From contig JALSQF010000010.1 in NCBI GenBank assembly GCA_026985555.1, positions 26,112-90,111 of the forward strand: 64,000 nucleotides of DNA, read 5' to 3'. The position numbers and the translations under genes are program-made. Below are positions 19,846-37,275 of the stretch, piece after piece. Positions within the stretch are counted from its first letter, which is position 1, and each line of letters begins with the position of its first letter. The stretch is from Candidatus Moraniibacteriota bacterium (GTDB taxonomy: Bacteria; Patescibacteriota; Minisyncoccia; Moranbacterales; UBA9337). The notes under the pieces are model-generated. The model had not been told where the DNA came from. It searched no databases and was given only the letters and a program-made list of their open reading frames with translations.

Positions 19846-19883
19846 TTTCTGGCTATTTAAATATCCATTTAAATAGCCAGAAA
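19846..19883. repeat. Palindromic repeat element, copy 1 (TTTCTGGCTATTTAAAT-ATCCAT-TTAAATAGCCAGAAA)
   Basis: Perfect 14-nt arms, intergenic position, flanked by T- and A-runs. Confidence 0.9.
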
Positions 19884-20028
19884 GAATTAATTTTGAAAAT
19901 ATACATATAAAACTAATAAAAATTTAATGTTTTAGAAGGTATTGACAGAACAGAAAAAATGTACTAAAACAACAGGTTAATTTAGTTATTTAAAAACTTA
20001 ATAAAAAATAAAAATCAAGGAGGAAAAG

Positions 20029-20850
20029 ATGAAAAAGATTATTTTGTTATTATTTTTATTTCTAGTCCAGGGTGGTTTTGTTGCATCTAGTTATTCTGGG
20101 CAACCAGAACAAAAAGAAGTAGTAAAGATGGAAGGAAATAATTTGATTATCTATCAAATTATTTCCTTGAAAATAGAGAAAAAACGTTTTTTAAATATAT
20201 TTTCACCAGAAGCATTGGCTCTAGTAACACAAATAACACAAACGCCAGAAATAAATTTAAAAAAAATTTATATGCTGGCGGAGGGGAAAGCCGAAAAGAT
20301 ATTATTTTCTCAAAAATTAGAGAAAATAATATTTGGATTTCCTTTGAAATATAAACTGAGAAATAATTACCTGTTCTTAAACAAAAGAACAGGTAGAATA
20401 GAAAAGAGGATAGAAATTGGAGAAGAGGATGCGTCAATTCTAACTCTAATGGCTGTATTGTCTATTCTTTCTCCGGGTGTATTTATATTTATGTATTATT
20501 TGCATTGCAAAGACTATTATTGCAAGCAAAATCAGATTATTTGGTTGTGTTGTTTATTACTTGTGGGCGCATTACTGAGCGCCTTATTTGGATTATTTGG
20601 TGGCGTTATTAGTTTGGTAGTGCCACTGTTTCTAGGTGCAGTGTTGGGATATGTTGCAGAATTCTATTTAAAAGAATTAAATGGAATTCTGTTTGGAGTA
20701 TATATGACATTATTTATTTATTTGCCAATCAGTTTTTTAGTTGAAAAAATAGGATGGCAAAATGCCATGGCCACTCAATATCTGCTAATGCTATTGTTAA
20801 TTTGTGTTATTGCTATAGCATTGGCGCAATTTATAAAAAAAAGAAAATGA
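20029..20850 (+). CDS. Integral membrane protein, hypothetical (signal peptide plus multiple TM)
   Basis: Strong RBS (aaggaggaaaagATG) and a hydrophobic profile. Confidence 0.45.
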   Translation: MKKIILLLFLFLVQGGFVASSYSGQPEQKEVVKMEGNNLIIYQIISLKIEKKRFLNIFSPEALALVTQITQTPEINLKKIYMLAEGKAEKILFSQKLEKIIFGFPLKYKLRNNYLFLNKRTGRIEKRIEIGEEDASILTLMAVLSILSPGVFIFMYYLHCKDYYCKQNQIIWLCCLLLVGALLSALFGLFGGVISLVVPLFLGAVLGYVAEFYLKELNGILFGVYMTLFIYLPISFLVEKIGWQNAMATQYLLMLLLICVIAIALAQFIKKRK

Positions 20851-20862
20851 ATAAAAATTTTA

Positions 20863-20900
20863 ACCCTCTCTAAAAAATTTCTTTTAGAGAGGGTTTTTAT
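20863..20900 (+). terminator. Rho-independent terminator
   Basis: accctctctaaaa / ttttagagagggt, followed by ttttatt. Confidence 0.7.
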
Positions 20901-20984
20901 TATAAAATAATAATTTACAAGTTTTAATTGGAATTTAAAGGTTGATTGATTTAATTTTAATCTTATTTCAATAGAAAGAAAAAA

Positions 20985-22082
20985 TTATAATCCTACTTCT
21001 TTTAATTTTTTAGCAACTTGTTTTTGTTGTCTATTTAGTTTTTGAGGAATATCAACGATAATTTTTACTAAATGATTTCCTCTTCCTCGTCGTCCTAAAT
21101 GAGGAATACCTTTTCCACGAATACGAAATATTTCTCCAGAAGCAGTGCCAGCAGGAATTTTTATTTTTACAAATCCATCAATAGTTTCTACATTTATTTT
21201 ATCTCCTAAAATAGCTTGAGATATTTTAATGTGTTCTTCAGAAAGAATATCATCATTTTCTCTTTTAAATTTAGGATGATTTTTTATATGAACAGTAACG
21301 TATAAATCGCCAGCCGGAGCTCCTATTTCTCCAGCTTCACCTTGTCCTTGAATAGAAATAGTTTGACCATCGTGAATACCAGCAGGAATTTTTACTAAAA
21401 CAGTGGTTTCTTTTTTAATTCTTCCATCACCACCACAACGAGAACATTTTTGAGAATAAGTTTTTCCAGTGCCATGGCAGTAGGGACAAGTGGAAACCTG
21501 TTCAAAAACACCTAAAATAGTTCTAACTTGTTTTTTAATTTTTCCTTTTCCTCCACAATGTGGACAGGGAATAGTTTGACTTCCAGGCTCTCCTCCTGTT
21601 CCATGACAATGATCGCAAACAGTAGCTTTATAAAGTTTAATTTCTTTTTCTGTTCCACGCACCATTTCTTCAAAGGTGATATCAATATCAACTTGAATAT
21701 CATTTCCTCGTTGTCTAGTGTTTCTAGAACTTCTTTGATTTCCTCCAAAAATATCGGAAAATATATCCCCAAATTCTTCACTGCTAAAATTAAAATCATT
21801 AAAACCAAATCCACCTGAAAAACCTTCTGAAGAAAATCCTCCAAATCCATTAGCGCCACCGCCAGCTCCCTCAAATGTTTGACCAAATTGATCATATTGT
21901 TGTCGTTTCTGTTTGTCGGATAATATTTGGTAAGCTTCATTTATTTCTTTAAATTTGGTTTCATCTCCTCCTTTTTTATCAGGATGATATTTATGAGCTA
22001 GTTTGCGAAAAGCTTTTTTAATTTCTTCATCACTGGCATCTTTAGATACTCCTAAAATTTCATAATAATTTTTATTTTTCAT
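20985..22082 (-). CDS. dnaJ: Chaperone DnaJ
   Basis: J domain (YYEILGV...HPDK), G/F-rich linker and four CxxCxGxG zinc-finger repeats. Confidence 0.92.
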
Positions 22083-22226
22083 AGTTTTATTTTAAAGTTA
22101 TCAATTTTATAAATTGTATTGTTATTTTTCAAAAAAATCATAGCACATAAAATAAAAATTAGCAATCCCATTAAGAGAGTGCTAATTGTTATTTTAATTT
22201 TATTAAAAAATATTTTTGAATTTAAA

Positions 22227-22490
22227 TTAAAGTTGTTTAATTTTTCTTTCAACTTGATGTAGCTCTTCTTGGAAATAATTTATCTCGTTGTCTATTTTTT
22301 TAATTAAGGCATTTTTATCTAAAATTTGAGTGTTTATTTCTTTGATTTGACGTTGTAATTGTTTTATTTCTATCAAAAGAGTTTCTTTTTTTCTTTCTTG
22401 CTTTTTTATCTCAGATTTTAATATAATACTTTGTCTCCAAAGATCCTTAGATTTTTTATTGTTATAAAAAGAATTGTTTTCTTCAGTCAT
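22227..22490 (-). CDS. Small coiled-coil protein, hypothetical
   Basis: 87 aa with heptad-like K/E/Q composition. Confidence 0.35.
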   Translation of the reverse strand: MTEENNSFYNNKKSKDLWRQSIILKSEIKKQERKKETLLIEIKQLQRQIKEINTQILDKNALIKKIDNEINYFQEELHQVERKIKQL

Positions 22491-22496
22491 ATTTTT

Positions 22497-22787
22497 TTAT
22501 TCCCAATGTTTATTAAAATTGTCTGGTAATTTTACAGCATCTTTCATTTTTTCTGCCGTTCTGCTACTTATGTATCCTCCTTGATGGGCCTTATTAATTA
22601 TTTCATTCATTTCTTTAGCTTCTAATCTTCCACTATTATCAATTTTGCGCGCTAAGTATTCTTTAGCATGAGAGGTTAGATGCAAATTTCCAAATTGTTT
22701 TTCAATTAAATCACGGGCGCTTTTACGCGAAAAAGAACGAGAAAAAGAAGAGGATCGTCTTCTAAAATTTAAGCGAGGAATAGACAT
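22497..22787 (-). CDS. Hypothetical protein
   Basis: 96 aa with a basic N-terminus, tightly coupled to the downstream ORF. Confidence 0.35.
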   Translation of the reverse strand: MSIPRLNFRRRSSSFSRSFSRKSARDLIEKQFGNLHLTSHAKEYLARKIDNSGRLEAKEMNEIINKAHQGGYISSRTAEKMKDAVKLPDNFNKHWE

Positions 22788-22960
22788 ATTTTTAACATTA
22801 TTTATTATTACAAAGATATTATTATTTTAGCACGATATTTTTAATGAGTAAATTAGGGACAATTATAGATTTGATCTTTTATTTTTAAATTTAATTTGTA
22901 AGGGTATTTAAATTAAATTATAATAATTTAATAAAGATTAGTTTAATATATTTATATAAT

Positions 22961-24970
22961 ATGTCTACAAAAAAAAATAATTATTTAATAACGGTAGTTC
23001 CTTTAGTAAAGATTCCTTTTTTGCGCAATCAATCTTTTTTTTATAGTCATTCTAAGAATTTAAAAGAAGGGACGTTAGTTAAGATCTCGTTTGGAAAAAG
23101 AAATCTTAAGGGAATAGTTTTAAAATCTCAAAAAGATTTTCCGCGAAAGGGTAATTTGCACATTAAACAAATTAAAGAAGTAGAAGAAGAGAATTTTCTT
23201 TCTACGGAACAAATTAAATTAGCTAAAAAAGTTGCAGAATATTATTTAGTTTCTTTAGGGTTAATTTTAAAAACCATTGTTCCTAGTAGAACAAAAGAAA
23301 GGAAAAATTTATCTCAAAAAATGAAAACATTGTCTTCCAATAAATTACTTCTTAATAATTCTCAATTAAAAACAGCGAAAAAAATTTTAAACTCTAAAAA
23401 TCAATTACCTTTTTTGCTGTTTGCTCCAGCTTCTTCTGGTAAAACCAATCTTTATATTTATTTAATTCAAAAGTTTATTCAAAAAAATAAACAAATACTT
23501 ATTTTAGTGCCAGAATTAACCATTCTTATTCAAGACAAGGAACGTTATCAAAAATATTTTCCTCAGGAAGAAATAGGGATATTGCATGGCAAAATAAGTA
23601 AGGGAAAAATTTTTTCTTTTTGGCAAAAAATTAAGCAAGGAAAAATAAAAATTATTTTAGGAACTCGTCAAGCCGTTTGGGCGCCTTTTAAAAAATTAGG
23701 ATTAATTATAATAGATGAAGAACAAGATATTTCTTTTAAACAATGGGATATGAATCCACGTTATGATGCGCGTCAGGTGGCTTTAATTTTAAGCAATATT
23801 TATAAAGCAAAAGTGGTATTAGGAAGCGCTACTCCTCGCATAGAAGATTATTATTTAACTCAAAAAAAATTTTATCAGTTGATAACTTTGCCTAAATTAA
23901 GAAAAAAAAAGACAGAAACCATTATAGTAGATATGAGAAAAGAGTATTATCAAAAAGGTAAAAAACAGAAGACCATTTCTGTTTTTTCTCAAACCTTAAA
24001 AGATGAAATTAGTTATTATTTAAAACAGAAACAACAAATAATGCTTTTAATTAATCGTCAAGGAATGAGTGCTTTTTCTGTTTGCAATAATTGTGGAAGT
24101 GTTTTGCGTTGTCCACGTTGTGAAAGAGCTTTGGTTTATCAAAAAGAAGGAAATTATCAATGTTTACATTGCAACTATCAAACAGATATTTTTCCTGTTT
24201 GTTCTCAATGTCAAGGAGTTAATTTCCATAATTATGGCATAGGAACGCAAAAAATAGAAAAGGAAATTAAAAAAATTTTTCCTTCGGCTAAAATAAAGAG
24301 GGTAGATAATCAAACAATGAAATCTTCTATTAAAAGCCAAGAAGAATTGTGGAAAGATTTTTCTCAAAAAAAAGTTGATATTTTAATTGGCACTCAGATG
24401 ATTACTAAGGCATGGGATCTTTCTTCAATAGGATTAATAGGAATTATTGATACGGATAGTCTTTTTGATTGGCCAGATTTTTTTACCAACGAAAGAGCTT
24501 TTAGTTTTATTTCTCAGGCTAAAGGAAGATTAAATCGTTTAGGTAATCAAATTTCAGGAAAAATTATTTTGCAAACTTTTCATCCTGAAGAAGAAATTTT
24601 AAAGTGGATTAAAGAAGATAATTATTTAAAATTTTATAAGGAAGAAATAGAAGATAGGCAAAAATTATTTTTTCCTCCTTTTAGCCAAATAATTAAACTT
24701 GTTTATCAAAACAAAATACCTCAGAAAGTAAACGAAAAAACAGAAAAAATTTATCAGCAACTTAAAAAAAATCTAGCTGAAAAAGAAAAGGAAACATTTC
24801 GTTTAATTCCTCCTTTTGATCCTTTAGTGTCTAAAATAAGAGGTCGCTGGAGAAAACAAATAATTTTGCAAATTCCTAAAAACGAAAAAATACCTTTTTT
24901 TTGGAAAAAAATAATTAGTAGTCTGGATTCAGCTTGGATAGTGGATGTTGATCCTGTTAATTTAAGCTAA
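22961..24970 (+). CDS. priA: Primosomal protein N' (PriA helicase)
   Basis: Helicase core with a degenerate Walker A (SSGKT), DEEQD box and the PriA-specific Cys-rich insert CNNCGSVLRCPRCERAL...CLHC...CSQC. Confidence 0.8.
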   Translation: MSTKKNNYLITVVPLVKIPFLRNQSFFYSHSKNLKEGTLVKISFGKRNLKGIVLKSQKDFPRKGNLHIKQIKEVEEENFLSTEQIKLAKKVAEYYLVSLGLILKTIVPSRTKERKNLSQKMKTLSSNKLLLNNSQLKTAKKILNSKNQLPFLLFAPASSGKTNLYIYLIQKFIQKNKQILILVPELTILIQDKERYQKYFPQEEIGILHGKISKGKIFSFWQKIKQGKIKIILGTRQAVWAPFKKLGLIIIDEEQDISFKQWDMNPRYDARQVALILSNIYKAKVVLGSATPRIEDYYLTQKKFYQLITLPKLRKKKTETIIVDMRKEYYQKGKKQKTISVFSQTLKDEISYYLKQKQQIMLLINRQGMSAFSVCNNCGSVLRCPRCERALVYQKEGNYQCLHCNYQTDIFPVCSQCQGVNFHNYGIGTQKIEKEIKKIFPSAKIKRVDNQTMKSSIKSQEELWKDFSQKKVDILIGTQMITKAWDLSSIGLIGIIDTDSLFDWPDFFTNERAFSFISQAKGRLNRLGNQISGKIILQTFHPEEEILKWIKEDNYLKFYKEEIEDRQKLFFPPFSQIIKLVYQNKIPQKVNEKTEKIYQQLKKNLAEKEKETFRLIPPFDPLVSKIRGRWRKQIILQIPKNEKIPFFWKKIISSLDSAWIVDVDPVNLS

Positions 24971-25073
24971 TGATTAATGAATTGACAAGTAGCAAAAAGT
25001 AGGATATACTAAAAAAGTTATTAGTATAAATAAAACTTATTTGATCTAAATAAATTTGTTTTAAGCATTTAAA

Positions 25074-25712
25074 ATGTCAAATGCAAGTGATAATAATTTG
25101 AAAAATAATAATGAATATACGGTCGCTACTTTTCTTTGGGAAATGGTGAAATTGTTTTTTTTGGCTCTGGTTATTATTGTACCCATTCGTCTTTTTTTGT
25201 TCCAACCATTTTTTGTAGAAGGTAGTAGCATGCGTCCTAATTTTACAGATGGAGATTATCTGATAGTCAATGAGATAGGATATAAAACAACTGCTTTAAA
25301 TATTTCGGGAAGAAATATTTTTACTGTGAAATCATTTAGGAACTTAAAGAGAGATGATGTAGTTGTTTTTCGTTATCCACGTGATCCATCTAAATTTTTC
25401 ATTAAAAGAATAATTGGATTGCCAGGAGAAACAGTAAAAATTAAGAATGGTTTTGTTTATATTTACAATAACGCTCACCCAGAAGGAATAAAACTAGATG
25501 AAAAATCTTATTTAAGCAATAAGGTAAAAACAGTAGATAGAGGAAAAGATACATTTATTTTAAAAAACAATGAATATTTTGTTTTAGGTGATAATAGAAA
25601 TGGAAGTTCTGATTCGCGAGTTTGGGGTCCAGTAAAAAAGAAATATATAGTAGGAAAAGTAATAATTAGAGCTTGGCCAATAAATAATTTTAAAGTATTT
25701 ACTGGTTTTTAA
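25074..25712 (+). CDS. lepB: Signal peptidase I
   Basis: S26 motifs GSSMRPNF, GDNRNGSSDSR and RIIGLPGE; N-terminal TM. Confidence 0.85.
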   Translation: MSNASDNNLKNNNEYTVATFLWEMVKLFFLALVIIVPIRLFLFQPFFVEGSSMRPNFTDGDYLIVNEIGYKTTALNISGRNIFTVKSFRNLKRDDVVVFRYPRDPSKFFIKRIIGLPGETVKIKNGFVYIYNNAHPEGIKLDEKSYLSNKVKTVDRGKDTFILKNNEYFVLGDNRNGSSDSRVWGPVKKKYIVGKVIIRAWPINNFKVFTGF

Positions 25713-25798
25713 TTTTTTTAAAAAATGTTATAAAGATTTATTTTACGATAAATCTGATGTTTATTTTTTAATGTCAGTGTTTTATCGCTTTACTATTT

Positions 25799-27397
25799 AT
25801 GCCTAGGAAAAAGAAAGCTACTAAAACTAAAAAAACAACGTCAACTCAAAGAAAAAAAAGAAAGTTAACAAAAAAGAGACCTAAAAAAAATCAAAAGAAA
25901 ACATTAAAAAAACAGCAAAGAAAAAGAACTACTCAAAAAAAAACAACCAAAACAAAAACGAAGCAATTAAAAAGAAAATCTAAAGCTAGCAAAAAACAAA
26001 GTCAAAAAAAGGAAATTAAACGGAAAAAACAATCAGGAAAAAAGAAGTTATATTCTTCCAAGAAAGCTAAAAAAATTAAAATAGAAGAAGCTATTTTGCT
26101 GCAACCTCCTAGAGGAATGAGAGATATTTTACCTGGAGAACAATCTTATTGGAATAAGGTCAGAAAGGTTTTAGAAAAAGTTTATCAAGATTATGGTTTT
26201 CAAAGAATTGATTTGCCTTTGTTAGAATATGAAAAGTTATTTATTCGTTCTTTAGGAACAGGAACAGATGTAATTGAGAAAGAAATTTATTCTTTTACTA
26301 CTAAGGGTAAAGATAGAGTTGCTTTAAGGCCAGAATTTACAGCAGGGATTGCTCGCGCTTATATTCAACATGGTATGAATGTATTGCCAAAACCAGTAAA
26401 ATTATTTTCTATGGGAACCGCTTATCGTTATGATCGTCCTCAAGATGGTCGCTACAGAGAATTTTATCAGGCTAATTTTGATATTTTAGGAGAAGAAGAT
26501 CCTATTTTAGATGCGCAATTAATTCAATTAGCTGCTAGAGTAGTAAAGGCCTTAGGAATTAAAAATATTCAATTTCAAATAAATAGTATTGGTTGTCAAG
26601 AATGCAGGGTTGATTACTTGGATCTCTTAAAAAGCTACTTTGAATCTAAAAAGCATAAATTGTGTCAAAATTGTAAAAAAAGACTTAAAACCAATCCTTT
26701 ACGAATTTTAGATTGCAAAGAAGATAAATGTATGCAAGTTTCAGCTAATGCTCCTAAAACTGTAGATCACTTATGTGATAGTTGTCATACTCATTTTAAA
26801 AATCTTTTAGAATATTTGGATGAATTGGGTGTTTCTTATGTAATTAATTCTAATTTAGTAAGGGGATTAGATTATTATACTAAGACTGTTTTTGAAATTT
26901 GGTCATTAAGAGAAAGTGGTAAGCGAGCTTTAGGTGGAGGTGGTCGTTATGATATGCTAATAGAAAATATAGGAGGAGAACCTACTCCGGCTATTGGTTT
27001 TGCTTTAGGTTTGGATAGAGTAGTTTTGGAAATGAAAAAAAACAAAATAAAAGGTTATCAAGAACCACGTCCAAAAGTTTTTTTAGCTCAATTAGGAAAT
27101 TTGGCTAAAAAGAAAAGTTTAAAAATATTTTCTAATTTAGAAAAAAGTGGTATCTTAGTAGCAGAAAGTTTTGGACGAGGAAGTTTACGTTCACAAATGC
27201 GTGCCGCTGATCGTTTAAATGTTGATGTTACTATTATTATTGGGCAAAAAGAAGCTTTAGATGGGACAGCTATTATTAAAAATATGTCAACAGGTACTCA
27301 AGAAATAATAACTCAAGAAAAGATGGTAGAAATGGTAAAGAAAATATTAAAAAATAATAAACCTAAAATTTTTTCTCAAAAGAAAAAGAGAAAATAA
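25799..27397 (+). CDS. hisS: Histidine--tRNA ligase with a lysine-rich N-terminal extension of about 100 aa
   Basis: Class II aaRS motifs (RGMRDILPGE, FQRIDLP..., GGGGRYD) and a C-terminal anticodon-binding domain. Confidence 0.9.
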   Translation: MPRKKKATKTKKTTSTQRKKRKLTKKRPKKNQKKTLKKQQRKRTTQKKTTKTKTKQLKRKSKASKKQSQKKEIKRKKQSGKKKLYSSKKAKKIKIEEAILLQPPRGMRDILPGEQSYWNKVRKVLEKVYQDYGFQRIDLPLLEYEKLFIRSLGTGTDVIEKEIYSFTTKGKDRVALRPEFTAGIARAYIQHGMNVLPKPVKLFSMGTAYRYDRPQDGRYREFYQANFDILGEEDPILDAQLIQLAARVVKALGIKNIQFQINSIGCQECRVDYLDLLKSYFESKKHKLCQNCKKRLKTNPLRILDCKEDKCMQVSANAPKTVDHLCDSCHTHFKNLLEYLDELGVSYVINSNLVRGLDYYTKTVFEIWSLRESGKRALGGGGRYDMLIENIGGEPTPAIGFALGLDRVVLEMKKNKIKGYQEPRPKVFLAQLGNLAKKKSLKIFSNLEKSGILVAESFGRGSLRSQMRAADRLNVDVTIIIGQKEALDGTAIIKNMSTGTQEIITQEKMVEMVKKILKNNKPKIFSQKKKRK

Positions 27398-27417
27398 TTA
27401 AATAATAATAAGAAAAT

Positions 27418-27822
27418 ATGTTAAATGAAAATGAAAACAATAAAAGTAATCAAGAAAATAATGATAACTGTGTTTTTTGTAAAATAGTTCAAAAAGAACT
27501 TCCAGCTGAAATAGTTTTTGAAAATAAAAACATTTTAGTTTTTAAAGACATCCATCCTATAGCTCCAATACATCTATTAATTATCCCTAAAAAACACATT
27601 AAAAGTCTTAATGAACTTACAGAAAAAGATCAACAATTAGTTGGGGAAATGATTATAGTGGGAAAGAATCTTGCTCATGACTTGAAAATTTCTGAAAAAG
27701 GTTATAAAATATTATTTCGTATTGGCGAGGATGGTGGACAAGAAGTTCCTCACTTACATCTTCATCTGATCGGAGGAGCTCCTTTATACGAAGAAATTAG
27801 ACCATTAAATAATTCTGTTTAA
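27418..27822 (+). CDS. HIT-family (histidine triad) hydrolase
   Basis: HLHLHLIGG histidine-triad motif and an N-terminal CxxC. Confidence 0.8.
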   Translation: MLNENENNKSNQENNDNCVFCKIVQKELPAEIVFENKNILVFKDIHPIAPIHLLIIPKKHIKSLNELTEKDQQLVGEMIIVGKNLAHDLKISEKGYKILFRIGEDGGQEVPHLHLHLIGGAPLYEEIRPLNNSV

Positions 27823-29123: not shown

Positions 29124-29491
29124 AAAAAAATTCAATTAGTCAATTTGCTAGTAGCTTAAATTATGCCTGGAGTGGTTTGAAATATGCCTTTAAGCACGAG
29201 AGAAATTTTAGAATAGAAATCATGCTGACCAGTTTAGTAATTTTTTTAATGTTATATTTTTCTTTAAAAAGTTGGGAAATAATAATTTTATTTTTAATGA
29301 TAGTGTGGGTTATTACAGTGGAATTAATAAATACAGTTTTGGAGAGAGTGGTAGATATTCTTAAACCAAGATTTCATCCTTATGCAAAATTAATTAAAGA
29401 TATTATGGCCGCAGTGGTGTTAATTTCAGCTTTAGCAGCTTTAGTTGTAGCTATTATTATATTTTTACCACATATAAAATCTCTTTTTTAA
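29096..29491 (+). CDS. dgkA: Diacylglycerol/undecaprenol kinase (DgkA family)
   Basis: Three TM helices, a prokaryotic DAGK signature (ELINTVLERVVD), and an overlap with ybeY. Confidence 0.7.
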   Translation: MSKNKRFKIKKNSISQFASSLNYAWSGLKYAFKHERNFRIEIMLTSLVIFLMLYFSLKSWEIIILFLMIVWVITVELINTVLERVVDILKPRFHPYAKLIKDIMAAVVLISALAALVVAIIIFLPHIKSLF

Positions 29492-29499
29492 TATAATAT

Positions 29500-30753
29500 A
29501 TGAATAAAAAAAATATTATTGCTGGAATAGATATTGGAAGTTATGCTATTAAAACAGTTATTGCGCAAGCGCCTGCAGAAGAAAGCGTATGGCGTGTTTT
29601 AGGTGCTAGTTCAATTTTATCTAAAGGAGTAAGAAAAGGAGTGGTGGTAGATCCAGAAGAAACGGCTAAAGCAATAAAAGAATCGTTACAAATAGCGCAA
29701 CAGATGTCTGATATAAAGCCTAATAAATTTTGGGTGAGTGTTACTAGTCATAATATAGAAATGAGACAAGCAAAAGGAGTGGTAGCTATTGGTCGTTCTG
29801 ATGGAGAAGTAACTAAAAATGATTTAGAAAGAGTGTTGGAATCTTCACGTAACACCCTAAGTGTCTCTAATAGAGAAATTATTCATAGTTTTCCTAGCAG
29901 TTATCGTTTAGATGATCAGGAAAATATAAAAGATCCCTTAGGAATGAAAGGAGTTCGTTTAGAATTGCAAGCTATTTCTATAGAAGGACCAATTAATCAA
30001 ATTAAAAACTTAATTAAAAGCGTCCAACAGACTAAAATAGAACCCGATGGATTAGCGCTTAATTCCTTAGCTGCTTCAGAAGTTATTCTTGATAAACAGC
30101 AAAAAGAACTAGGAGTAGTTTTAATAGATATAGGAGCAACTACTACTTCTCTAATAATTTTTGAAGAAGGAGAAATAGTGTATATAGCTAGTATACCAAT
30201 AGGATCGGGACATATAACTAATGATATTGCCATAGGATTAAGAACATCAATAGAAACAGCCGAAAAAATTAAGTTAAAATATGGTAATGCTTTTAGTAAA
30301 GAAGTTAGCAAAAAAGAAGAAATAGATCTTTCAGAAGTTGATTCTAATGAATCAGAATCTGTTTCACGTTATCATGTATCGGAAATTATAGAAGCTCGTT
30401 TGGAAGAGATATTTGAATTAATTAATAAAGAACTAAAGAAAGCAGGCAAAGCTAGTCTTTTGCCAGCCGGTGCAGTACTTGTTGGCGGTGGTGCGCAACT
30501 ACCTCAAATAGTTGAATTTACTAAAGAAAAATTAAGATTACCAGTTCAATTAGGTTACCCACATAGTTTAGGAGGAGTTTTAGATAAAGTTGATGAAACA
30601 TCTTTTGCGGTGGCTTTAGGACTAATAATGTGGGGAAATAAAACGGAGGGAAAAATTGAAAATAGTCAAAATGTTTTTTGGGACAAAATATTAAATAGAG
30701 ATAATGAATTATGGAATAAATTAAAAGATTGGAGTAAAAAATTTTTGCCTTAA
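29500..30753 (+). CDS. ftsA: Cell division protein FtsA
   Basis: Actin-like ATPase fold (GIDIGS, DIGATTT, VGGGAQLP); immediately upstream of ftsZ. Confidence 0.88.
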   Translation: MNKKNIIAGIDIGSYAIKTVIAQAPAEESVWRVLGASSILSKGVRKGVVVDPEETAKAIKESLQIAQQMSDIKPNKFWVSVTSHNIEMRQAKGVVAIGRSDGEVTKNDLERVLESSRNTLSVSNREIIHSFPSSYRLDDQENIKDPLGMKGVRLELQAISIEGPINQIKNLIKSVQQTKIEPDGLALNSLAASEVILDKQQKELGVVLIDIGATTTSLIIFEEGEIVYIASIPIGSGHITNDIAIGLRTSIETAEKIKLKYGNAFSKEVSKKEEIDLSEVDSNESESVSRYHVSEIIEARLEEIFELINKELKKAGKASLLPAGAVLVGGGAQLPQIVEFTKEKLRLPVQLGYPHSLGGVLDKVDETSFAVALGLIMWGNKTEGKIENSQNVFWDKILNRDNELWNKLKDWSKKFLP

Positions 30754-30859
30754 TTTAAGGATAATAATTTAAAGTAACTTGACACTTTTTGAATAAGTAT
30801 GTTAGATTGAATTATTAGAAGTTTTTTATTTTAATTTATTTATTATTTGTTATAAAACT

Positions 30860-32104
30860 ATGGGAGAAATTAAACCAGAAATAGAAACATTTGCTCGTAT
30901 TAAAGTTGTAGGAGTAGGTGGATCAGGTAATAATGCTATTAGTAGAATGATAGAATCCAAAATAAAAGGAGTAGAATTTGTGGCTATCAATACAGATTCT
31001 CAAGCATTACATCATTCTAGAGCAGCAGAAAAAGTGCATATAGGAAAAAATTTGACTAAGGGATTAGGCGCTGGCATGAATCCAGAAATTGGAAGGCAAG
31101 CTGCTGAAGAAAACAGAGATGAAATTCAAGAAGTATTAAAAGGCGCAGATATGGTTTTTGTTACGTGTGGCTTAGGTGGCGGAACTGGAACAGGAGCGGC
31201 GCCAATTGTAGCTGAAACAGCTAAAGAATTAGGAGCTTTAACAGTAGCAGTAGTCACTAAACCGTTTACTTTTGAAGGAGCGCAAAGAAGAGCTATTGCA
31301 GAGGAAGGCTTAGAAATTTTAAAAGAAAGAGTAGATACTCTAATTACCATTCCTAACGACAAATTACTTTCTATTATTGATAAGAAAACTACTTTAATTA
31401 ATGCCTTTAAAATTGTAGATGATATTTTGAGACAAGGCGTGCAAGGTATTTCTGATTTAATTACTAAGCCGGGAATTGTTAATGTAGATTTTGCTGATGT
31501 AAGAGCTATTATGAGTGATAGTGGTTCTGCACTAATGGGAATAGGTATTGCGAGTGGAGAAAATAGGGCAGCGGAAGCAGCTAAAGCGGCTATTAATAGT
31601 CCTTTGCTAGAACTTTCTATAGATGGAGCGCATGGAGTTCTTTTTAATGTTTCAGGCTCTAGTGATTTAACTATGTTAGAAATAAACGAAGCAGCTAATA
31701 TTATTACAGAAAATGTTGATCCTAATGCTAAGGTGATTTTTGGAGCTGTTACCGATGAACAAATTAGAAAAGGAGAAATACATATTACGGTAGTAGCAAC
31801 AGGTTTTGATTTAAATGATTCTGATACATCTGTAGCTGATCAAATTTCTCGTTCTTCTTATTCTGGTTCCCAATCTCAAACATCTAAAGACAATAATCAG
31901 TTAGAGGGTAATTCTTTAGAAAAAAAAGAAGAGGAAAATTTAGCCAAAAAAAACAAGGTTACTTTTCCTTCTAAAAAATTAGAACCTAAAATGATTATTG
32001 AAGAAAAAGTGCAACCATCAAATATTTCCATACAGGAAGAAGATGAACTTGATGATAATGATTTAGAAATTCCCGCTTTTATTAGACGCAAAATGAATAA
32101 ATAA
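30860..32104 (+). CDS. ftsZ: Cell division protein FtsZ
   Basis: Tubulin signature [10 protein letters not shown], the NTD (Q)AL motif and a C-terminal variable tail. Confidence 0.95.
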
Positions 32105-32206
32105 GTTGTTAAAAAAGGTAAAGAATTTAATCTCTTGCCTTTTTTTATTTATTATATATAATAAATAAGTATTGTGATTAAATTTTTTTAATTTAATCAA
32201 CATTAT

Positions 32207-32281
32207 TCCGCGGTAGCTCAGTGGTAGAGCAGGTGGCTGTTAACCACTTGGTCGGGGGTTCGAATCCCTCCCGCGGAGCCA
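32207..32281 (+). tRNA. tRNA-Asn (anticodon GTT), CCA encoded
   Basis: Cloverleaf folded by hand: acceptor TCCGCGG/CCGCGGA, anticodon loop CTGTTAA, T-loop TTCGAAT, discriminator G. Confidence 0.85.
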
Positions 32282-32423
32282 AATTGTATGTTGTTGTTCT
32301 GCCGCCTCGGCGCTTCATGCTTCGGCAAACAAATTCGCTAGTATTTTCTAAAGATTTTTAAAAGAAATAGAATTTTTTTCATTTTCGCAAAAGATTTATT
32401 ATTTGATAGTTTTAAAAGATTCA

Positions 32424-32454
32424 ACTCGTTTGGTTTTTAACCAGACGAGTTTTT
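32424..32454 (+). terminator. Rho-independent terminator hairpin (part of the left direct repeat flanking the GC-rich gene)
   Basis: ctcgtttgg-ttttta-accagacgag plus ttttt. A second copy with compensatory base changes lies at 33334-33366. Confidence 0.7.
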
Positions 32455-32455
32455 C

Positions 32456-32493
32456 TTTCTGGCTATTTAAATGGATATTTAAATAGCCAGAAA
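32456..32493. repeat. Palindromic repeat element, copy 2
   Basis: TTTCTGGCTATTTAAAT-GGATAT-TTAAATAGCCAGAAA; the centre is inverted relative to copy 1. Confidence 0.9.
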
Positions 32494-32570
32494 GAATTAG
32501 TTTTACAAATCTATTTATTATAAAAAACTAATAAGAATCTAATATTTAAACAATACAAAAATGCAAGGTA

Positions 32571-32599
32571 TTGACAAAAAAGAAAAAATAAGCTATAAT
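32571..32599 (+). promoter_or_regulatory. Consensus sigma-70 promoter (TTGACA-N17-TATAAT) driving the GC-rich ORF
   Basis: Exact -35 and -10 hexamers with a 17-nt spacer. The upstream context aggtattgaca is shared with the promoter at 19942. Confidence 0.7.
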
Positions 32600-32662
32600 G
32601 GTCGGTTAGTTTGAGTGAAGTTCTTTAAAAATTTTTTAAAAAATTTAACAAAGGAGGAAAAA

Positions 32663-33325
32663 ATGAAAACAACAGAAAAAAGAAGAGAGCTGGTGAACAT
32701 GGTTAAAGAAATTCTCCTTTCTAAAGGAGAGGAGAAAAAAAATTCCCTTCTTGCTGCCAAGGTGGCAGTGAAGATGGGGAAAAAGAAGCTTGACAAAGAG
32801 GTCATCTCCATTGTCAGGCAGGCCAGGGCCGAATTGGCTTACGCCAAGGAGGCCAGGGAGACTATTCTTAATTTTTGTCAAAAAAACAGGGACTTCAGCA
32901 GGAGTCCCTACAAATTAGCGGATGCGGTTTTTCGGACAGAGCATCCGCACTGTCCCTTTTCGGCTGTTATGGCAGAGGCGAAAGCCCTTCTGGCCGACTG
33001 GAAGAAGGATCTGGAAATCTTTGGTAAGGATTGGCGCCGACGTGTCAATTATGCCAAGGATATTTTGGAGGAAGAAAATAGTGTTGCCAAAACGAACGAG
33101 TTGTATGCGGTTCGTTTTGACGATAATCCCCTTTTGCGTCAGAAGGTTTTTCGAATGGCGCTGAGGGAGTTAGAGAGAAATGCTTCTGATTTTAAGGCCA
33201 GAGTATCTCAAATAAAAATCCCTTCTCCTCCAAGTGGGGAGGGAAAAAAGAAAAAGAAAATAAAAAAGAAAAAAAGGCGTCAACGTGACGCCAAAATTCG
33301 CAACAATGTGTTGCGAATGTTTTAA
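32663..33325 (+). CDS. Hypothetical alpha-helical protein encoded by a compositionally foreign (GC-rich) gene; AT-rich lysine-rich C-terminal tail
   Basis: Perfect RBS (AAGGAGG-N7-ATG at 32663). Codon usage (AGG, GCC, AAG, CTG) is unlike every other gene in the window. The ORF-track start at 32615 is probably an upstream extension. Confidence 0.6.
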   Translation: MKTTEKRRELVNMVKEILLSKGEEKKNSLLAAKVAVKMGKKKLDKEVISIVRQARAELAYAKEARETILNFCQKNRDFSRSPYKLADAVFRTEHPHCPFSAVMAEAKALLADWKKDLEIFGKDWRRRVNYAKDILEEENSVAKTNELYAVRFDDNPLLRQKVFRMALRELERNASDFKARVSQIKIPSPPSGEGKKKKKIKKKKRRQRDAKIRNNVLRMF

Positions 33326-33333
33326 AAAAATCA

Positions 33334-33366
33334 ACCCGTCTGTGGTTTTTAACCAGGCGGGTTTTT
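33334..33366 (+). terminator. Rho-independent terminator hairpin (right direct-repeat copy)
   Basis: cccgtctgtgg-ttttta-accaggcggg plus ttttt. Confidence 0.65.
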
Positions 33367-33367
33367 C

Positions 33368-33405
33368 TTTCTGGCTATTTAAATGGATATTTAAATAGCC
33401 AGAAA
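33368..33405. repeat. Palindromic repeat element, copy 3
   Basis: Identical in sequence to copy 2. Confidence 0.9.
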
Positions 33406-33513
33406 AAGAGTTGGTTTTCTATTTTTTATATTTATTATATTTTTTTATTTCAGCAGTTGATTTTTAATAATAAGAAAGTTAAAATTAAAAGGATTTTTTA
33501 ATTAAAATAATTT

Positions 33514-34194
33514 ATGTCAAATAATAAGAAAAAAATACTGTTAGGGTTAACAACTACTTCGGGATCTAATTGGCGAGAAAAAATTGAAGAAATTAAAAAA
33601 TACAATATTCAAGATATAGCTTTGTTTTTAACAGGTATTCAAAAAAAGGAAAGAGAAGAATTGTATTATCTTTTAGAAAAAACAAAAATTGATTTCATTT
33701 ATCATATTCACATTAGAAGTGATATGGCAGAAAAAGAATTAGAGTATTTAGTAAAGAAATACAGAGTGCAAGCTTTGAATATTCATTCTCAACGTTCTCG
33801 GTTTGCTTTTCCAAATTTTCCAACAAGATTTAAAAAAATTACTTATATAGAAAATACAGTCGTAGTTCCAACTTTTCAAGAATTAAATCAATTTGCGGGG
33901 GTGTGTATAGATTTCTCTCATTGGGATGTGTATAAATTTTTTCACTGGAAAGAATATCAAAGAATGAAAAGAGTAGTTAAACAATATCCCATAGGATGTT
34001 GCCATGTTTCAGCGGTGCGTTATTTTAAAAAAATTAGAATTTCTTTTGATAAACATAAAGCCAGACGCCAACAAGAATTTGATTACTTAAAAAAATATAA
34101 AAATTATTTACCTCAATACATTAGTTTAGAATTAGAAAATAGTTTTCAAGAACAATTAGTTTATAAAAAATATATAGAATCTTTTTTAAACTAA
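33514..34194 (+). CDS. Hypothetical protein
   Basis: 226 aa with no recognisable motif; only His/Cys-containing blocks (FIYHIHIRSD, IGCCHVSAV). Confidence 0.4.
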   Translation: MSNNKKKILLGLTTTSGSNWREKIEEIKKYNIQDIALFLTGIQKKEREELYYLLEKTKIDFIYHIHIRSDMAEKELEYLVKKYRVQALNIHSQRSRFAFPNFPTRFKKITYIENTVVVPTFQELNQFAGVCIDFSHWDVYKFFHWKEYQRMKRVVKQYPIGCCHVSAVRYFKKIRISFDKHKARRQQEFDYLKKYKNYLPQYISLELENSFQEQLVYKKYIESFLN

Positions 34195-34289
34195 TAATTT
34201 TTAAATAAAAAAAATAAAAAATTATTATACAAAAGGTTGCTTTTTGTTTTTTTTATGCTACTCTATAACAAATTAATCTTATTAAAATT

Positions 34290-34604
34290 ATGTTTGATCC
34301 AGGTCCCAGTGATTTTAATGTGCTCATCTTTTTTTTAATTATTTCCTTTATTATTTCTATTTTGATTTATTCTTTTTTTAAAAAAATGGATTGGGCTTTT
34401 TTTTCTTTTTCTGTTTTGAGTAATGTTAGTTTTTATATTTTATCAAACTCTCTAATGTTTGTTGAAAATGATGCAATTTGGATTATGAAATTTACTTTTA
34501 ATTATTGGCCATGGTTAAATGGTTTTCTTTTAATCTTTTTAATTATTAAGTGGTTTAGAAAAAGGAGGCTGAACAGTAAAGAAAATGGGAAAAAATTTTT
34601 TTAG
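34290..34604 (+). CDS. Small membrane protein, hypothetical
   Basis: 104 aa with 3 hydrophobic segments. Confidence 0.35.
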   Translation: MFDPGPSDFNVLIFFLIISFIISILIYSFFKKMDWAFFSFSVLSNVSFYILSNSLMFVENDAIWIMKFTFNYWPWLNGFLLIFLIIKWFRKRRLNSKENGKKFF

Positions 34605-37206
34605 AATTTTATTTATCTTTCTTTTTTTATTAGCTCCTGAAGTTTCTTGGTTAGAATCTTTCGCTCAACCATATTCTCAATATTCTCAACCAATTATAAT
34701 TTCTTTAAATACGGTTTGGCATAAAGAAGATAAATTGATTTTTCAAAGACCGATAGTTATAGTTAATGGCGCCACTTTAACTATTGAAAAAGGAACTCAA
34801 ATTATTTTTAAAAATAAAAAAGACTTTAGAGTCCCTCTTGGCATTAAGGTTCTGAAAGGGAAAATAATTGCTCAAGGAGAAACTCAGTCCAAAATTATTT
34901 TTCTTTCTCAAGATAAAACTCCTTTTAGCCTTTCCATAGAAAGCAAAGAACAACAATCTTTTTTTCGCTATGTAAAAATTATTGGCGGAGGATATCAATT
35001 AGCTTTTCATAGCCATAATTCTAATTTTAATTTTTTTTCTAAAGCTTACGCTTTTAGGGGTATCCTAGGGCAAGCAGCTTTGGAAGTTAGGGGTGGAAAA
35101 ATTAAAGTAGAAAATACAGAGTTTTTAAATAGCCATTATGCAGATGTAGAAACAGGAATAGGAACAGAATATGATAAGGAAAATCAAGAATTGAAAAATG
35201 TTTATTTACCTCAAGTAACCATTGTGAATAGTAATTTTTCTTTTACACCTGCTCTTGTAGGTAATCAATGTAGAGAGTATAAGGAGATGTTAGGAAAGAA
35301 TAATCCTCAAGAATGTTCTCAAAGTGTTTTTTTAAAAGATAATTGGTATGGTTTTTCTCAAGAGGAAAAAAAGGAAAAGTTTAAATTGCAAGGAGACTAT
35401 TTAAAAAAGGGTTCTAGAAAAAGTAGTTTGATTTTAGATCCAGTGGTTTTTATTCCAGGAATTTTAGGATCAGATTTTAATAGAGAAGGAGAATTAAAAA
35501 TAGATCCCATCTGGCATCAATACGATGATCTACTTCAATCATTGCAAAAAAATGGTTTTCCAGAAAACAAAAAATTATTTCTTTTTCCTTATAACTGGCG
35601 TTTTAAGAATGAAGTTAGCGCTGCGCTTTTAAGAGAAAAGATTAAACAAATTCAAAAAGAAACACAAATTTCTAAAGTAGACATAGTGGCTCATTCTATG
35701 GGCGGATTAGTAGCGCGAGCCTATGCGGAAAAAAAAGACTATGCTAATAATATTGATCAAATGATTTTTTTAGGAACGCCTCATCAGGGAGCGCCAAAAG
35801 CTTTTTTAATGTGGGAAGGAGGAGAGGGCTATCAATTTTTATTGGCTAGGCATTTGCGTCATGAAGCAGAAGAAAATAATTATGATGAATTGTATCAATA
35901 TGTTCAAGAAAAAACTCCTTCTGTTAAAGAACTACTGCCAGTTTATAGTTATTTGTTTGATCTGGAGAAAAATAATCTTGAAAAATATCCTCAAGGTTAT
36001 CCGGTTAATTCTTTTTTAGAAAAATTAAACGCAACGGATAATTTATATAAATTAGAAAAAATAAATATAATTAATATTATAGGAAAAACTAGGAAAAATA
36101 ATACCATTGGTAAAATTAGAGTAAATAAAAGTATTTCTTTTGCTGAAAAAAAATGGGTAGATGGTTATCCAGAAAAATTTGATGATAAAAAAACAGATAG
36201 AGGTTTAGAACTTGTTTCTGGTGATGGGACTGTGCCCTTTCAAAGCGCTGAAAAAATTCCATTTAATAAAGAAATAATTTTGGAAACTACACACACTAAT
36301 CTACCTACTGAAGCTCAGTGTGAAATTTTTTCAGAACTAACTTTATTAGAAAAAAATAAGTGTCAATTTATTGATAATTGGCATAGTCCTAACTGGTTAT
36401 TATTTCATATTTTTTCTCCCGTAGATGTCCAAGTAATAGATCCTTTAAAAAGGAAAATTGGAAAGGATTTTTCTACAGGGAAAATTTTTAATGAAATTTA
36501 TGGAGCTTATTATAGTGGATATAAAACAAAGAAAGAATTCTTAGCTATTCCTTTTCCTCAAGAAGGGAAGTATAGAATTTTAACTCAAGGAGTAGGTCAA
36601 GGAAAATATAGAATTGAAGTAGCTTATCTTTCTCAAAATAAAAACGGAGAAATAATTGATAGCCAAATTATTTATCAAGGAAAAACTTCTCTTCAAGAAG
36701 AAAATCAACAGGTTTTTTTCTTGAAAGATAATTTGTTATCAAAAGAAGAAACCAATCAAAAAGATTATCAAGAAGAGAACAAAGATAATATCAATCATAA
36801 TGTGGACAATAATGTTATTTTAGAAAGTTTAAATAATTCTTCGGTGTCTCAAAACAAGCACCAAAAGAAAGATTCTTCTGATTCTCAAAAACAAAAAAAG
36901 AAAAACCCAAAAAAAAATTTAAAATCAAAGAAAATAATTCAATCAAAAAAGAAGCTATCTTTCTCTAAAAATAAAACTAATTATTCGGAAAAAATAAAGG
37001 AAGAGAATTATCAGAGTAAAGAAAATCTAGTTACAGAAAAGAAAGTGAAAGGAGAGGAAAATAATATTTATAAAATCAAAAAAAATAATTCGCAGAAAAC
37101 AAAAAAGAATTTTTTAAAAAGATTATTACTAATTATAGGTATAGTAGTTTTAACTCTTATAATTTTTGGATGGAAAAAAATATTTGGAAAAAAAACCAAA
37201 GAATAA
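34585..37206 (+). CDS. Large secreted/surface-anchored alpha/beta-hydrolase (lipase/esterase) with a lysine-rich spacer and a C-terminal TM anchor
   Basis: Signal peptide, a beta-rich N-terminal region, an oxyanion-hole-like PVVFIPGILGS, the nucleophile elbow AHSMGG (GxSxG), a K-rich low-complexity tail and a terminal hydrophobic helix (LLLIIGIVVLTLIIFGW). Confidence 0.65.
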   Translation: MGKNFFRILFIFLFLLAPEVSWLESFAQPYSQYSQPIIISLNTVWHKEDKLIFQRPIVIVNGATLTIEKGTQIIFKNKKDFRVPLGIKVLKGKIIAQGETQSKIIFLSQDKTPFSLSIESKEQQSFFRYVKIIGGGYQLAFHSHNSNFNFFSKAYAFRGILGQAALEVRGGKIKVENTEFLNSHYADVETGIGTEYDKENQELKNVYLPQVTIVNSNFSFTPALVGNQCREYKEMLGKNNPQECSQSVFLKDNWYGFSQEEKKEKFKLQGDYLKKGSRKSSLILDPVVFIPGILGSDFNREGELKIDPIWHQYDDLLQSLQKNGFPENKKLFLFPYNWRFKNEVSAALLREKIKQIQKETQISKVDIVAHSMGGLVARAYAEKKDYANNIDQMIFLGTPHQGAPKAFLMWEGGEGYQFLLARHLRHEAEENNYDELYQYVQEKTPSVKELLPVYSYLFDLEKNNLEKYPQGYPVNSFLEKLNATDNLYKLEKINIINIIGKTRKNNTIGKIRVNKSISFAEKKWVDGYPEKFDDKKTDRGLELVSGDGTVPFQSAEKIPFNKEIILETTHTNLPTEAQCEIFSELTLLEKNKCQFIDNWHSPNWLLFHIFSPVDVQVIDPLKRKIGKDFSTGKIFNEIYGAYYSGYKTKKEFLAIPFPQEGKYRILTQGVGQGKYRIEVAYLSQNKNGEIIDSQIIYQGKTSLQEENQQVFFLKDNLLSKEETNQKDYQEENKDNINHNVDNNVILESLNNSSVSQNKHQKKDSSDSQKQKKKNPKKNLKSKKIIQSKKKLSFSKNKTNYSEKIKEENYQSKENLVTEKKVKGEENNIYKIKKNNSQKTKKNFLKRLLLIIGIVVLTLIIFGWKKIFGKKTKE

Positions 37207-37225
37207 GTCTTATCTTTTCTTTAAT

Positions 37226-37275
37226 TTTCTGGCTATTTAAATATCCATTTAAATGGATATTTAAATAGCCAGAAA
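37226..37275. repeat. Palindromic repeat element, copy 4 (longest form, perfect 44-nt palindrome core)
   Basis: ctggctatttaaatatccatttaaatggatatttaaatagccag. Copies 1-3 look like centre-deleted versions. Confidence 0.9.

Follow-up and report, generated by a model that had tools for sequence, protein, structure and literature searches.

Identical palindromes dispersed through the intergenic DNA of a Moranbacteria species: a putative REP/SPRITE-like repeat family

Palindromic repeats were examined in a stretch of 64,000 nt from a Candidatus Moraniibacteriota bacterium (assembly GCA_026985555.1, contig JALSQF010000010.1, positions 26,112 to 90,111 of the forward strand; hereafter the window), where an earlier sequence-only reading had pointed out four copies of an intergenic palindrome. 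This element, here called P, is present in at least ten copies in one species, four of them in the window and six exact copies on other contigs, and the copies have remained identical beside flanking sequences that have diverged. The interpretation that we favour, with about even confidence, is that P is a species-specific palindromic repeat, comparable to the repetitive extragenic palindromic (REP) and SPRITE elements of other bacteria, that would be propagated or homogenised as DNA and would act secondarily as a sense-strand hairpin terminator or insulator.

P is 38 nt long and consists of two inverted arms around an asymmetric 4-nt centre, TTTCTGGCTATTTAAAT-(ATCC or GGAT)-ATTTAAATAGCCAGAAA. 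All four places named in the earlier reading hold the element, three as exact 38-nt copies (c1 to c3, Table 1) and one as a compound copy at 37226-37275 (c4). The presence of the centre in both orientations was likewise borne out, with ATCC at c1 and GGAT at c2 and c3, while its length, previously read as 6 nt (ATCCAT or GGATAT), had to be corrected to four. The copy at 37.2 kb is indeed a perfect palindrome, extending however over 52 nt (37225-37276) and not over a 44-nt core. It corresponds to a standard P plus 12 bp (ATTTAAAT and GGAT), with ATCC and GGAT flanking a third ATTTAAAT box, and these boxes follow each other at a 12-bp spacing, two in a standard P and three in c4. It begins 19 nt past the stop codon of a gene for an 873-aa hydrolase and ends 309 nt before tuf. 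The short forms had been thought to derive from this long copy; since the 38-nt form is found in nine of the ten known copies, the 50-nt form at 37.2 kb is the exception and therefore derived, through a 12-bp insertion or duplication, and not the ancestor.

Chance does not account for these palindromes. The 14-nt arm has 15 matches in the window against 2.1 expected from shuffled sequences, none of which reached 15, and the arms of P measure 17-26 bp, compared with 9-13 bp for the longest palindromes in 20 shuffles. RNA folding, which the earlier reading had proposed as a check, gave very stable hairpins of -21 to -33 kcal/mol (z-scores of -5.5 to -11); folded as DNA, P reaches -15 to -23 kcal/mol.

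A genome-wide count of copies had also been proposed, with a lack of further copies counting towards refutation; this outcome did not occur, as searches beyond the window yielded the six further exact copies, all in the same species. They came from a search of the Joint Genome Institute (JGI) metagenomes that returned eight stretches, and they lie on four contigs of sample Ga0256833, the centre being always ATCC/GGAT; two of the stretches, L004 and L008, were rejected as an unrelated tandem repeat. The copies outside the window are designated by locus as L003, L006, L007, L009, L022a (upstream of the isoleucyl-tRNA synthetase, IleRS) and L022b. The IleRS encoded beside the two L022 copies has a 100% identical counterpart among the proteins of a different contig in the metagenome-assembled genome (MAG) GCA_054022635.1, and therefore the JGI contigs with P belong to the same species. 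The window itself is 100% identical to contig JBPMRF010000020.1 of that MAG, and a second MAG is 99.3% identical. Relatives of its FtsZ place the lineage in Candidatus Moranbacteria (Patescibacteria/CPR). The occurrence of P in independent assemblies (two NCBI MAGs and the JGI metagenome) excludes an assembly artefact or an adaptor, and Logan contigs, built with k=31, end exactly inside P copies, as a true repeat longer than k would lead one to expect. Altogether, P is spread over at least five contigs of the species in both centre orientations, with four copies per 74 kb in an unbiased stretch and a density of about one per 13-18 kb.

Beyond this species the element was not encountered. An exact-pattern scan of 185,579 species representatives returned one unrelated, chance-like site only, and P was not found in IMG/VR, in phage and plasmid collections or in JGI metagenomes other than Ga0256833. 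The nearest relative (FtsZ 83% identical) has no P, its tRNA-Asn being followed by a plain terminator, and the syntenic loci of four relatives (L013, L024, L025 and L026) contain neither a P-like element nor an analogous family of repeated palindromes. Rfam searches, both with gathering thresholds and by E-value, gave only chance matches of the microRNA or snoRNA type at P copies.

All ten known copies are intergenic, as had been stated for the first four, and the largest intergenic gaps of the window hold all four of its copies. Seven copies lie between genes on the same strand and three between divergent ones, whereas convergent neighbours do not occur. The next start codon is found 88-355 nt downstream in every copy, and the family keeps to intergenic DNA that is promoter-distal. 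P is separated from the next -35 box by 18 to 121 nt, a spacing that follows no helical phase, and at L007 two divergent -35 boxes lie 18-19 nt from either end of P. No functional theme connects the neighbouring genes, which include tuf, gyrA, smc, ndk, a phosphoribosyltransferase gene, genes for surface proteins and ORFans. At five of the ten copies a small gene with no Pfam, PHROG or NCBIfam match is located 97-170 nt downstream; the small genes adjoining P show no paralogy among them, and a syntenic relative has neither two of these genes nor the P copies that go with them.

Conservation within the element is absolute. The 32-nt core CTGGC...GCCAG is invariant in all ten copies, that is, nine standard copies of 38 nt and the one with the 12-bp insertion. 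When 129 kb were searched with nhmmer, the standard copies (n=9) scored 52-56 bits and the long copy 33 bits (as two half-matches), the next match being at 6 bits; this gap indicates that there are no decayed copies of P. Two comparisons set this uniformity against the surrounding sequence. In three places P is joined to a homologous promoter and leader module, called R; in these P-R modules (n=3) the arms are identical at 34 of 34 positions, compared with 68-79% in the collinear homologous flanks (Fisher p=7e-4 to 1e-5). Similarly, in a direct repeat that brackets a 912-bp GC-rich cassette, the terminator H adjoining P is identical at 41 of 49 positions, with compensatory changes in its stem, against 38 of 38 for P (p=0.008). 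A passive duplicate would drift together with its flanks, and the divergence of the flanks beside an identical P speaks against this explanation. Neither is a generic hairpin function sufficient, because every base of stem and loop is fixed and both orientations are used: the centre is ATCC at c1 and L022b and flipped to GGAT at c2 next to the same flanking module, and its orientation relative to transcription is split 3:3. In addition, the palindrome runs 2-11 bp past the core with sequence that is specific to each copy, for example TTATTTATCTTT and AAAGATAAATAA on the two sides in L007 and AATTTTCTT and AAGAAAATT in L009.

The lack of decayed copies, the random orientation, the variable promoter geometry, the incoherent neighbours and the restriction to one species favour copying or homogenisation at the DNA level. 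That the copies owe their identity to a process of this kind, and not to a role in each transcript, is a proposal to which we give even chances. Such a process might work through the hairpin or cruciform form of P. Candidates would be an enzyme that recognises the hairpin and copies P, or an exchange between copies by short-patch conversion or template switching. In conversion, any other copy could be the donor and could pair in either orientation, which would flip the centre, and a switch of template on the hairpin could make the stem grow by 2-11 bp into the copy-specific flank. Identical copies dispersed in the genome might also serve as recombination anchors, the 912-bp cassette lying between two direct copies.

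Several observations weigh against propagation of P as DNA. The ~130 kb of the genome that could be read revealed neither a transposase nor a REP-associated tyrosine transposase (RAYT) nor any further candidate for mobilising P, and the sole recombinase in them is an Xer-type gene located 21 kb away. Direct target-site duplications are absent at P, whose flanks are instead inverted-symmetric, and no isolated single arms occur in 129 kb. Gene order and centre orientation are identical in all assemblies compared; P shows no presence/absence or orientation polymorphism between the two strains that are 99.3% identical or in the other assemblies, and mobility itself was not seen. Moreover, three copies stand at the same place beside a homologous promoter module, which fits inheritance and selection better than independent insertion, and absolute identity over 34 nt or more, loop included, is equally expected of a long protein-binding or recombination site under selection, classical REPs being more heterogeneous.

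The last point leads to the alternative that P is a long symmetric protein-binding site maintained by selection, either an operator or UP-like site recognised by a nucleoid protein or a global regulator, or a ParB centromere or occlusion site that has diverged. We regard it as rather improbable. The perfect conservation of P next to drifting flanks, its symmetry, a centre whose orientation is irrelevant to the context and the two (in c4, three) ATTTAAAT boxes at 12-bp spacing would all suit such a site, and so would its constant location 88-355 nt before a start codon, never between convergent genes, with the L007 copy centred between two divergent -35 boxes. Yet P, with its 38 bp, is far longer than the sites known for dimers and has a centre without palindromic symmetry, its spacing from the promoter is variable and unphased, and the downstream genes (tuf, gyrA, smc, ndk, ORFans) form no coherent regulon. 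With regard to ParB, it speaks for the idea that a parB gene is present and that no canonical parS was detected in the 74 kb around it, even with up to 3 mismatches. The parS site is a 16-bp palindrome that ParB binds and that clusters near the origin; P is unrelated to its consensus, TGTTTCACGTGAAACA. The specificity of parS is normally conserved across bacteria, which counts against a diverged centromere. The ParB-family gene in question (L019, 4484-5476) is located 5.5 kb upstream of the window and has no adjacent parA.

The sequence-only reading had explained the family by its effect on transcription: P would exist as a bidirectional terminator and would form, with the ~130 bp downstream, a reusable terminator-promoter insulator cassette. 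As an account of the whole family we consider this model unlikely, although part of it agrees with the data. The flanks of P are T-rich on the 5′ side and A-rich on the 3′ side and only lengthen the stem, the base of which is A-U rich with a U tract that is interrupted and offset. Within the 12 nt past the stem of the seven copies in tandem contexts, the sense strand carries 4-9 U (mean 5.7) and the antisense strand 0-6 (mean 2.7), with 0-3 U in five of these antisense tails and 5-6 in L003 and L006. A terminator scan with a lenient tail rule flagged c1, c2 and c4 as terminator-like on the plus strand and made no such call on the minus strand. At c1, c4 and L022a we saw no terminator-like hairpin besides P behind the preceding gene, and the GC clamp and AT-rich stem top of P resemble native terminators such as that at 20862-20895. 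Seven copies lie behind a gene, where read-through RNA would form the stable hairpin (-21 to -33 kcal/mol) and, after it, a tail moderately rich in U. Judging from the sequence, P in tandem contexts is thus probably a one-directional, sense-strand terminator or a stabiliser of 3′-ends that shields the next promoter.

Bidirectional termination as the reason for the existence of the family is not supported. The antisense tails are mostly U-poor, three of the ten copies are placed between divergent promoters and have no upstream gene to terminate, and c2, c3 and L003 directly follow a separate canonical terminator. Nor does a generic hairpin explain the identity of all stem and loop bases or the equal use of both orientations. 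As a separate observation on terminator regions, two contigs of one metagenome (L007, 10110-10236, and L009, 8018-8144) end in the same 127 nt, which begin at a canonical terminator (AAAAAAGCAAACAA...TTGTTTGCTTTTTT) and reflect either a fork in the assembly or another terminator region that is repeated.

The promoter half of the proposed cassette was analysed in the same way. The homology downstream of the copies at 19.8 and 32.4 kb, described as covering 60-80 bp, is real and extends further, from P to the start codon; a blastn comparison of the flanks alone aligned 106 nt at 73.6% identity (E=2e-12), and both downstream flanks contain AAGGTATTGACA. Blocks common to R are TTGACA-AAAAAGAAAAAAT, a leader block resembling TTTAGTTATTTAA, and AAGGAGG. 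A third P-R module is found at L022b, before a gene for a 173-aa protein on another contig, and the genes downstream of the three modules are mutually unrelated. The notion of a 130-bp hairpin-spacer-promoter cassette reused before different genes, with three copies joined to homologous promoters and 5′ untranslated regions (5′-UTRs), thus holds for three of the ten copies and fails for the other seven, namely c3, c4 (at tuf) and five more; furthermore, the spacing between P and the -35 box varies from copy to copy. Because R accompanies only these three copies and occurs once without P (Table 1), the two are, on sequence grounds, separate modules that are sometimes adjacent, and not one 130-bp unit.

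Table 1. Location of P copies, R modules and features of the GC-rich cassette in the window
Feature	Position	Strand	Description
R-type promoter/5′-UTR, fourth (TTGACAAAAAAAGAAAAAT...)	~7026-7111	-	Before 100-aa ORF 6723-7025, no adjoining P
P copy c1	19846-19883	none	17-bp perfect arms, centre ATCC; between DUF3048 gene (end 19423) and ORF 20029-20850
R module at c1	19884-20028	+	Homologous spacer, promoter (-35 at 19942-19947, -10 at 19965-19970) and 5′-UTR; before 273-aa membrane-protein ORF
tRNA-Asn	32207-32281	+	Ends 174 nt upstream of c2
Left ~88-nt direct repeat (H + P)	32409-32496	+	H part 41/49 identical, P part 38/38
Terminator H	32423-32451	+	Canonical intrinsic terminator, 13-bp stem then TTTTTC, directly 5′ of c2
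P copy c2	32456-32493	none	Centre GGAT; perfect arms reach 32453-32496 (20 bp); left edge of 912-bp cassette
R module at c2	32494-32662	+	Spacer, consensus promoter (-35 at 32571-32576, -10 at 32594-32599), 5′-UTR, ribosome-binding site
Cassette gene	32663-33325	+	220 aa, 44% GC vs 27% GC for the genome; all-helical basic protein
Right ~88-nt direct repeat (H′ + P)	33319-33408	+	H′ + c3
Terminator H′	33333-33363	+	H homologue with compensatory stem changes; directly after stop of cassette gene, directly 5′ of c3
P copy c3	33368-33405	none	Centre GGAT, oriented as c2; right edge of 912-bp cassette
P copy c4	37225-37276	none	Compound 52-nt perfect palindrome, ATCC-ATTTAAAT-GGAT middle, 26-nt arms, no spacer

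The GC-rich gene at 32.5 kb does adjoin P, as had been reported, and is in fact bracketed by two direct copies of it. The 912-bp cassette, composed of R, the gene for a 220-aa protein and the terminator H′, starts 213 nt downstream of tRNA-Asn, and the bracketing copies c2 and c3 are in direct orientation with identical GGAT centres. The duplicated segment at its borders comprises terminator plus P (~88 nt) and not P alone. A word-indexed search returned no relatives of the 220-aa protein, and an exhaustive HMMER search found four, at 39-43% identity, with the shared motifs HPxCP, WRxRVxFAKD and DNPxL. For this small family, comparison with Pfam, PHROG, NCBIfam, PDB sequences and viral contigs gave no match, and an alignment-based model of the protein (pLDDT 77.5) is all-helical with no structural neighbour. 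Its HPH motif raised the idea of a mobilising HUH enzyme, which was discarded in view of the all-helical models and the lack of a structural or family match.

One relative of the gene is encoded on a contig from a sample that also holds the lineage with 83% FtsZ identity. This relative (L029, from another Moranbacteria lineage) is bracketed by 58-nt direct repeats (441-498 and 1629-1686, 88% identical) that are unrelated to P, one of which starts 8 nt past the stop codon. The repeats enclose the gene and 455 nt of upstream sequence, and the repeat includes a T run preceded by a small hairpin. Hence, the 220-aa gene seems to belong to a small mobile cassette which comes to lie between duplicated terminator-region sequence. 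P may be part of the homology or a recombination anchor at the 912-bp cassette, and is not a general feature of the cassette family; that P mediated the insertion at 32.5 kb is plausible. An empty cassette site was found neither in the two strains nor in any assembly, and the nearest relative, without P at tRNA-Asn, is too distant to define the insertion.

At the same tRNA-Asn in that relative (GCA_026990435.1, L013, 7730-8022), a gene for a 75-aa GIY-YIG endonuclease has been inserted and the 5′ part of the tRNA gene is duplicated upstream of it, which looks like a homing-endonuclease insertion. As to the strains, substitutions between the two that are 99.3% identical are patchy, with 15 within 90 nt inside the cassette gene (32965-33052) and 14-35 differences per 500 nt at 31000-31500, 34000-34500 and 36000-36500. 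This suggests recombination tracts from diverged alleles.

The geometry of the cassette raises the question of whether P is a site similar to loxP or FRT, at which a tyrosine recombinase inserts and excises small gene cassettes. Arms of 14-17 bp around an asymmetric ATCC/GGAT core are what this explanation asks for, and integration of a circle would leave a cassette between direct copies with identical centres. The small genes without family match that follow half of the copies at 97-170 nt, two of which are missing together with P in a syntenic relative, the homologue of the cassette gene within 58-nt direct repeats in another lineage and the Xer-type recombinase encoded in the window are also in line with it. 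Against this, the likeness is one of geometry only. The duplicated segment includes the diverged terminator H (84%) and is no clean product of a P-to-P crossover, the repeats that enclose the cassette in the relative bear no relation to P, and no recombinase gene adjoins any copy. Besides, ten or more two-way sites plus an active recombinase would scramble a small chromosome, whereas gene order is identical in all assemblies and no rearrangements between P sites were observed; and conservative recombination cannot flip the centre on the same flank, as seen between c1 and c2. We therefore judge a lox/FRT-like function highly unlikely. The Xer-type tyrosine recombinase gene (58824-59750, minus strand) belongs to a 4.9-kb segment bracketed by a 79-nt inverted repeat (84% complementary; 58775-58853 and 63750-63828), which also contains gltX, tRNA-Val, a gene for a C39-like peptidase and a spacer of extreme AT content. 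This segment might be invertible, might have been integrated, or might represent a dif-like region beside its recombinase.

In a broader version, P would mark the boundaries of a cassette-acquisition system in a bacterium of the Candidate Phyla Radiation (CPR), in which small promoter-bearing genes are inserted next to P. Insertion would proceed by site-specific recombination (e.g. through the one Xer-type recombinase) or by recombination of transformed DNA anchored at P, and the 912-bp cassette would be the most recent event. We find this distinctly improbable.

Uptake of DNA could also maintain a species-specific word, and P might be a signal for natural competence, like the inverted pairs of DNA uptake sequences (DUS) or uptake signal sequences (USS) that double as terminators. 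Neisseria is known to have inverted DUS pairs located behind genes, and functions of the type IV pilus or competence type are represented by PilB in the window and by a ComEC-like Competence domain in a relative. Nevertheless, this idea is barely credible: P occurs about once per 13-18 kb compared with about once per kb for DUS/USS, it is never inside genes, and no sub-motif of P is over-represented outside the ten copies. Other assignments were rejected outright. A dif or Ter site does not go with many copies in mixed orientation within one replichore of monotonic GC skew, and direct reading showed that neither sequence nor arrangement fits a sigma-54 promoter or a CRISPR or TIGR repeat. An apparent reverse complementarity between the left flank of c1 and the right flank of c3 amounted to ~60% identity outside P, that is, AT-rich background.

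We then compared P with known systems. The REP/MITE-like behaviour attributed to P was confirmed insofar as it forms a real family of dispersed intergenic palindromes. Like REPs and REPINs, P is short (REPs have about 20-40 nt), hairpin-forming, strictly extragenic, dispersed in both orientations, without target-site duplication and sometimes with copies close together, and REPs can likewise stabilise or terminate upstream transcripts. It differs in having perfect stems instead of imperfect ones, zero variation among copies and a reduced CPR host, and the number of copies found is at least ten, compared with tens to hundreds per genome for REPs. REPs occur in enterobacteria and pseudomonads, are mobilised by RAYTs, whose genes they typically flank, and carry a GTAG-type 5′ foot as the context of recognition and cleavage. 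The foot of P is TTTCTGGC / GCCAGAAA, with no GTAG in or beside any copy; no RAYT/Y1 HUH transposase was found among the genes of the window, of the 10 kb upstream and of locus L022, and the protein encoded between two P copies is all-helical with no HUH fold. For a MITE (a miniature transposable element with inverted repeats), the arms of P could serve as terminal inverted repeats; the target-site duplications of a MITE are absent. A MITE would further have a parent IS element with the same terminal inverted repeats; on that score, no arm of P standing alone turned up in 129 kb.

The small gene between two direct copies of a palindromic repeat recalls the attC sites of integrons and the Vibrio cholerae repeats (VCR). 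Integron attC sites have R″/R′ core sites (RYYYAAC...GTTRRRY) and an imperfect stem with extrahelical bases, and are used by a platform of IntI, attI and Pc. The stem of P, in contrast, is perfect with no extrahelical bases, and its copies are identical in sequence and not merely conserved in structure. Direct reading of 32409-32510 and 33319-33420 found no GTTRRRY at the 3′ boundary, and there is no adjacent integron integrase nor attI/Pc. Ordinary intrinsic terminators share with P a GC-clamped hairpin followed by a U-rich sense strand in the seven tandem contexts, although the three divergent copies are not at the 3′-end of a transcription unit and three others come after a real terminator.

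Among described repeats, the pneumococcal SPRITE elements are repeated and intergenic, resemble intrinsic terminators, tend to cluster and are thought to affect neighbouring transcription (PMC10969869). P is repeated, intergenic and terminator-like as well, but has another sequence and host, a much longer stem (17-26 bp) and a moderate U tail, and also occurs between divergent promoters. The Correia (CREE) elements of Neisseria combine inverted repeats, long RNA hairpins and sigma-70 promoters and lie mostly just upstream of genes (PMC10969869). The hairpin plus promoter at c1, c2 and L022b is reminiscent of them; the differences are that Correia elements measure 100-200 bp and have terminal inverted repeats, a TA duplication, a site for integration host factor and an internal promoter, whereas here R is a separate module. 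In behaviour, REP/REPIN and pneumococcal SPRITE repeats come closest to P. In the literature searched, we found no description of the P sequence or of dispersed palindromic repeats in Patescibacteria/CPR.

Other features of the region were recorded along the way. Downstream of c1, three further long perfect palindromes (20132-20168, 20299-20332 and 20368-20395, with stems of 16, 13 and 11 bp) fall inside the first 370 nt of ORF 20029-20850, which is odd for a coding sequence. A unique AT-only palindrome (10405-10449, 22-bp stem, 1-nt loop) lies between convergent genes at 9182-10357 (plus strand) and 10503-10811 (L31, minus strand). At the end of the window, 63020-64000 is ~1 kb of non-coding DNA with 13% GC, many AT-only palindromes (e.g. 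63326-63372, 23-bp stem) and repeats of the ATATACAT type, and may be origin-like or have some other structural role. In a type I restriction-modification locus (51766-57467), made up of an hsdM-like gene (51766-53835) and hsdS (56118-57467), a gene for a 752-aa AAA_13 ATPase is inserted between the two, 1.4 kb upstream of the Xer-type recombinase. The ribosomal protein operon (40602-43546) has the order L23-S19-L22-L2-S3 instead of the usual L23-L2-S19-L22-S3, with an unusually long L22 of 212 aa. Finally, the IleRS gene of the same species (L022, 10001-13564) contains a His_Phos_1 domain inserted at residues 512-671, an architecture common to many Patescibacteria homologues.

The genomes of Patescibacteria/CPR are considered streamlined, with little mobile DNA, and the P family offers a test case for the persistence of repeats in a genome of roughly 1 Mb, besides explaining why assemblies of this lineage break. 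P will likely turn out to be an ordinary REP/SPRITE-like element, whose value would be descriptive unless the cassette-capture or the protein-binding reading proves true; were cassettes indeed acquired next to P, the 220-aa family, bracketed by direct repeats in another lineage too, would be a new kind of small mobile unit. Taken together, P may show how repeats shape the boundaries of transcription units and gene gain.

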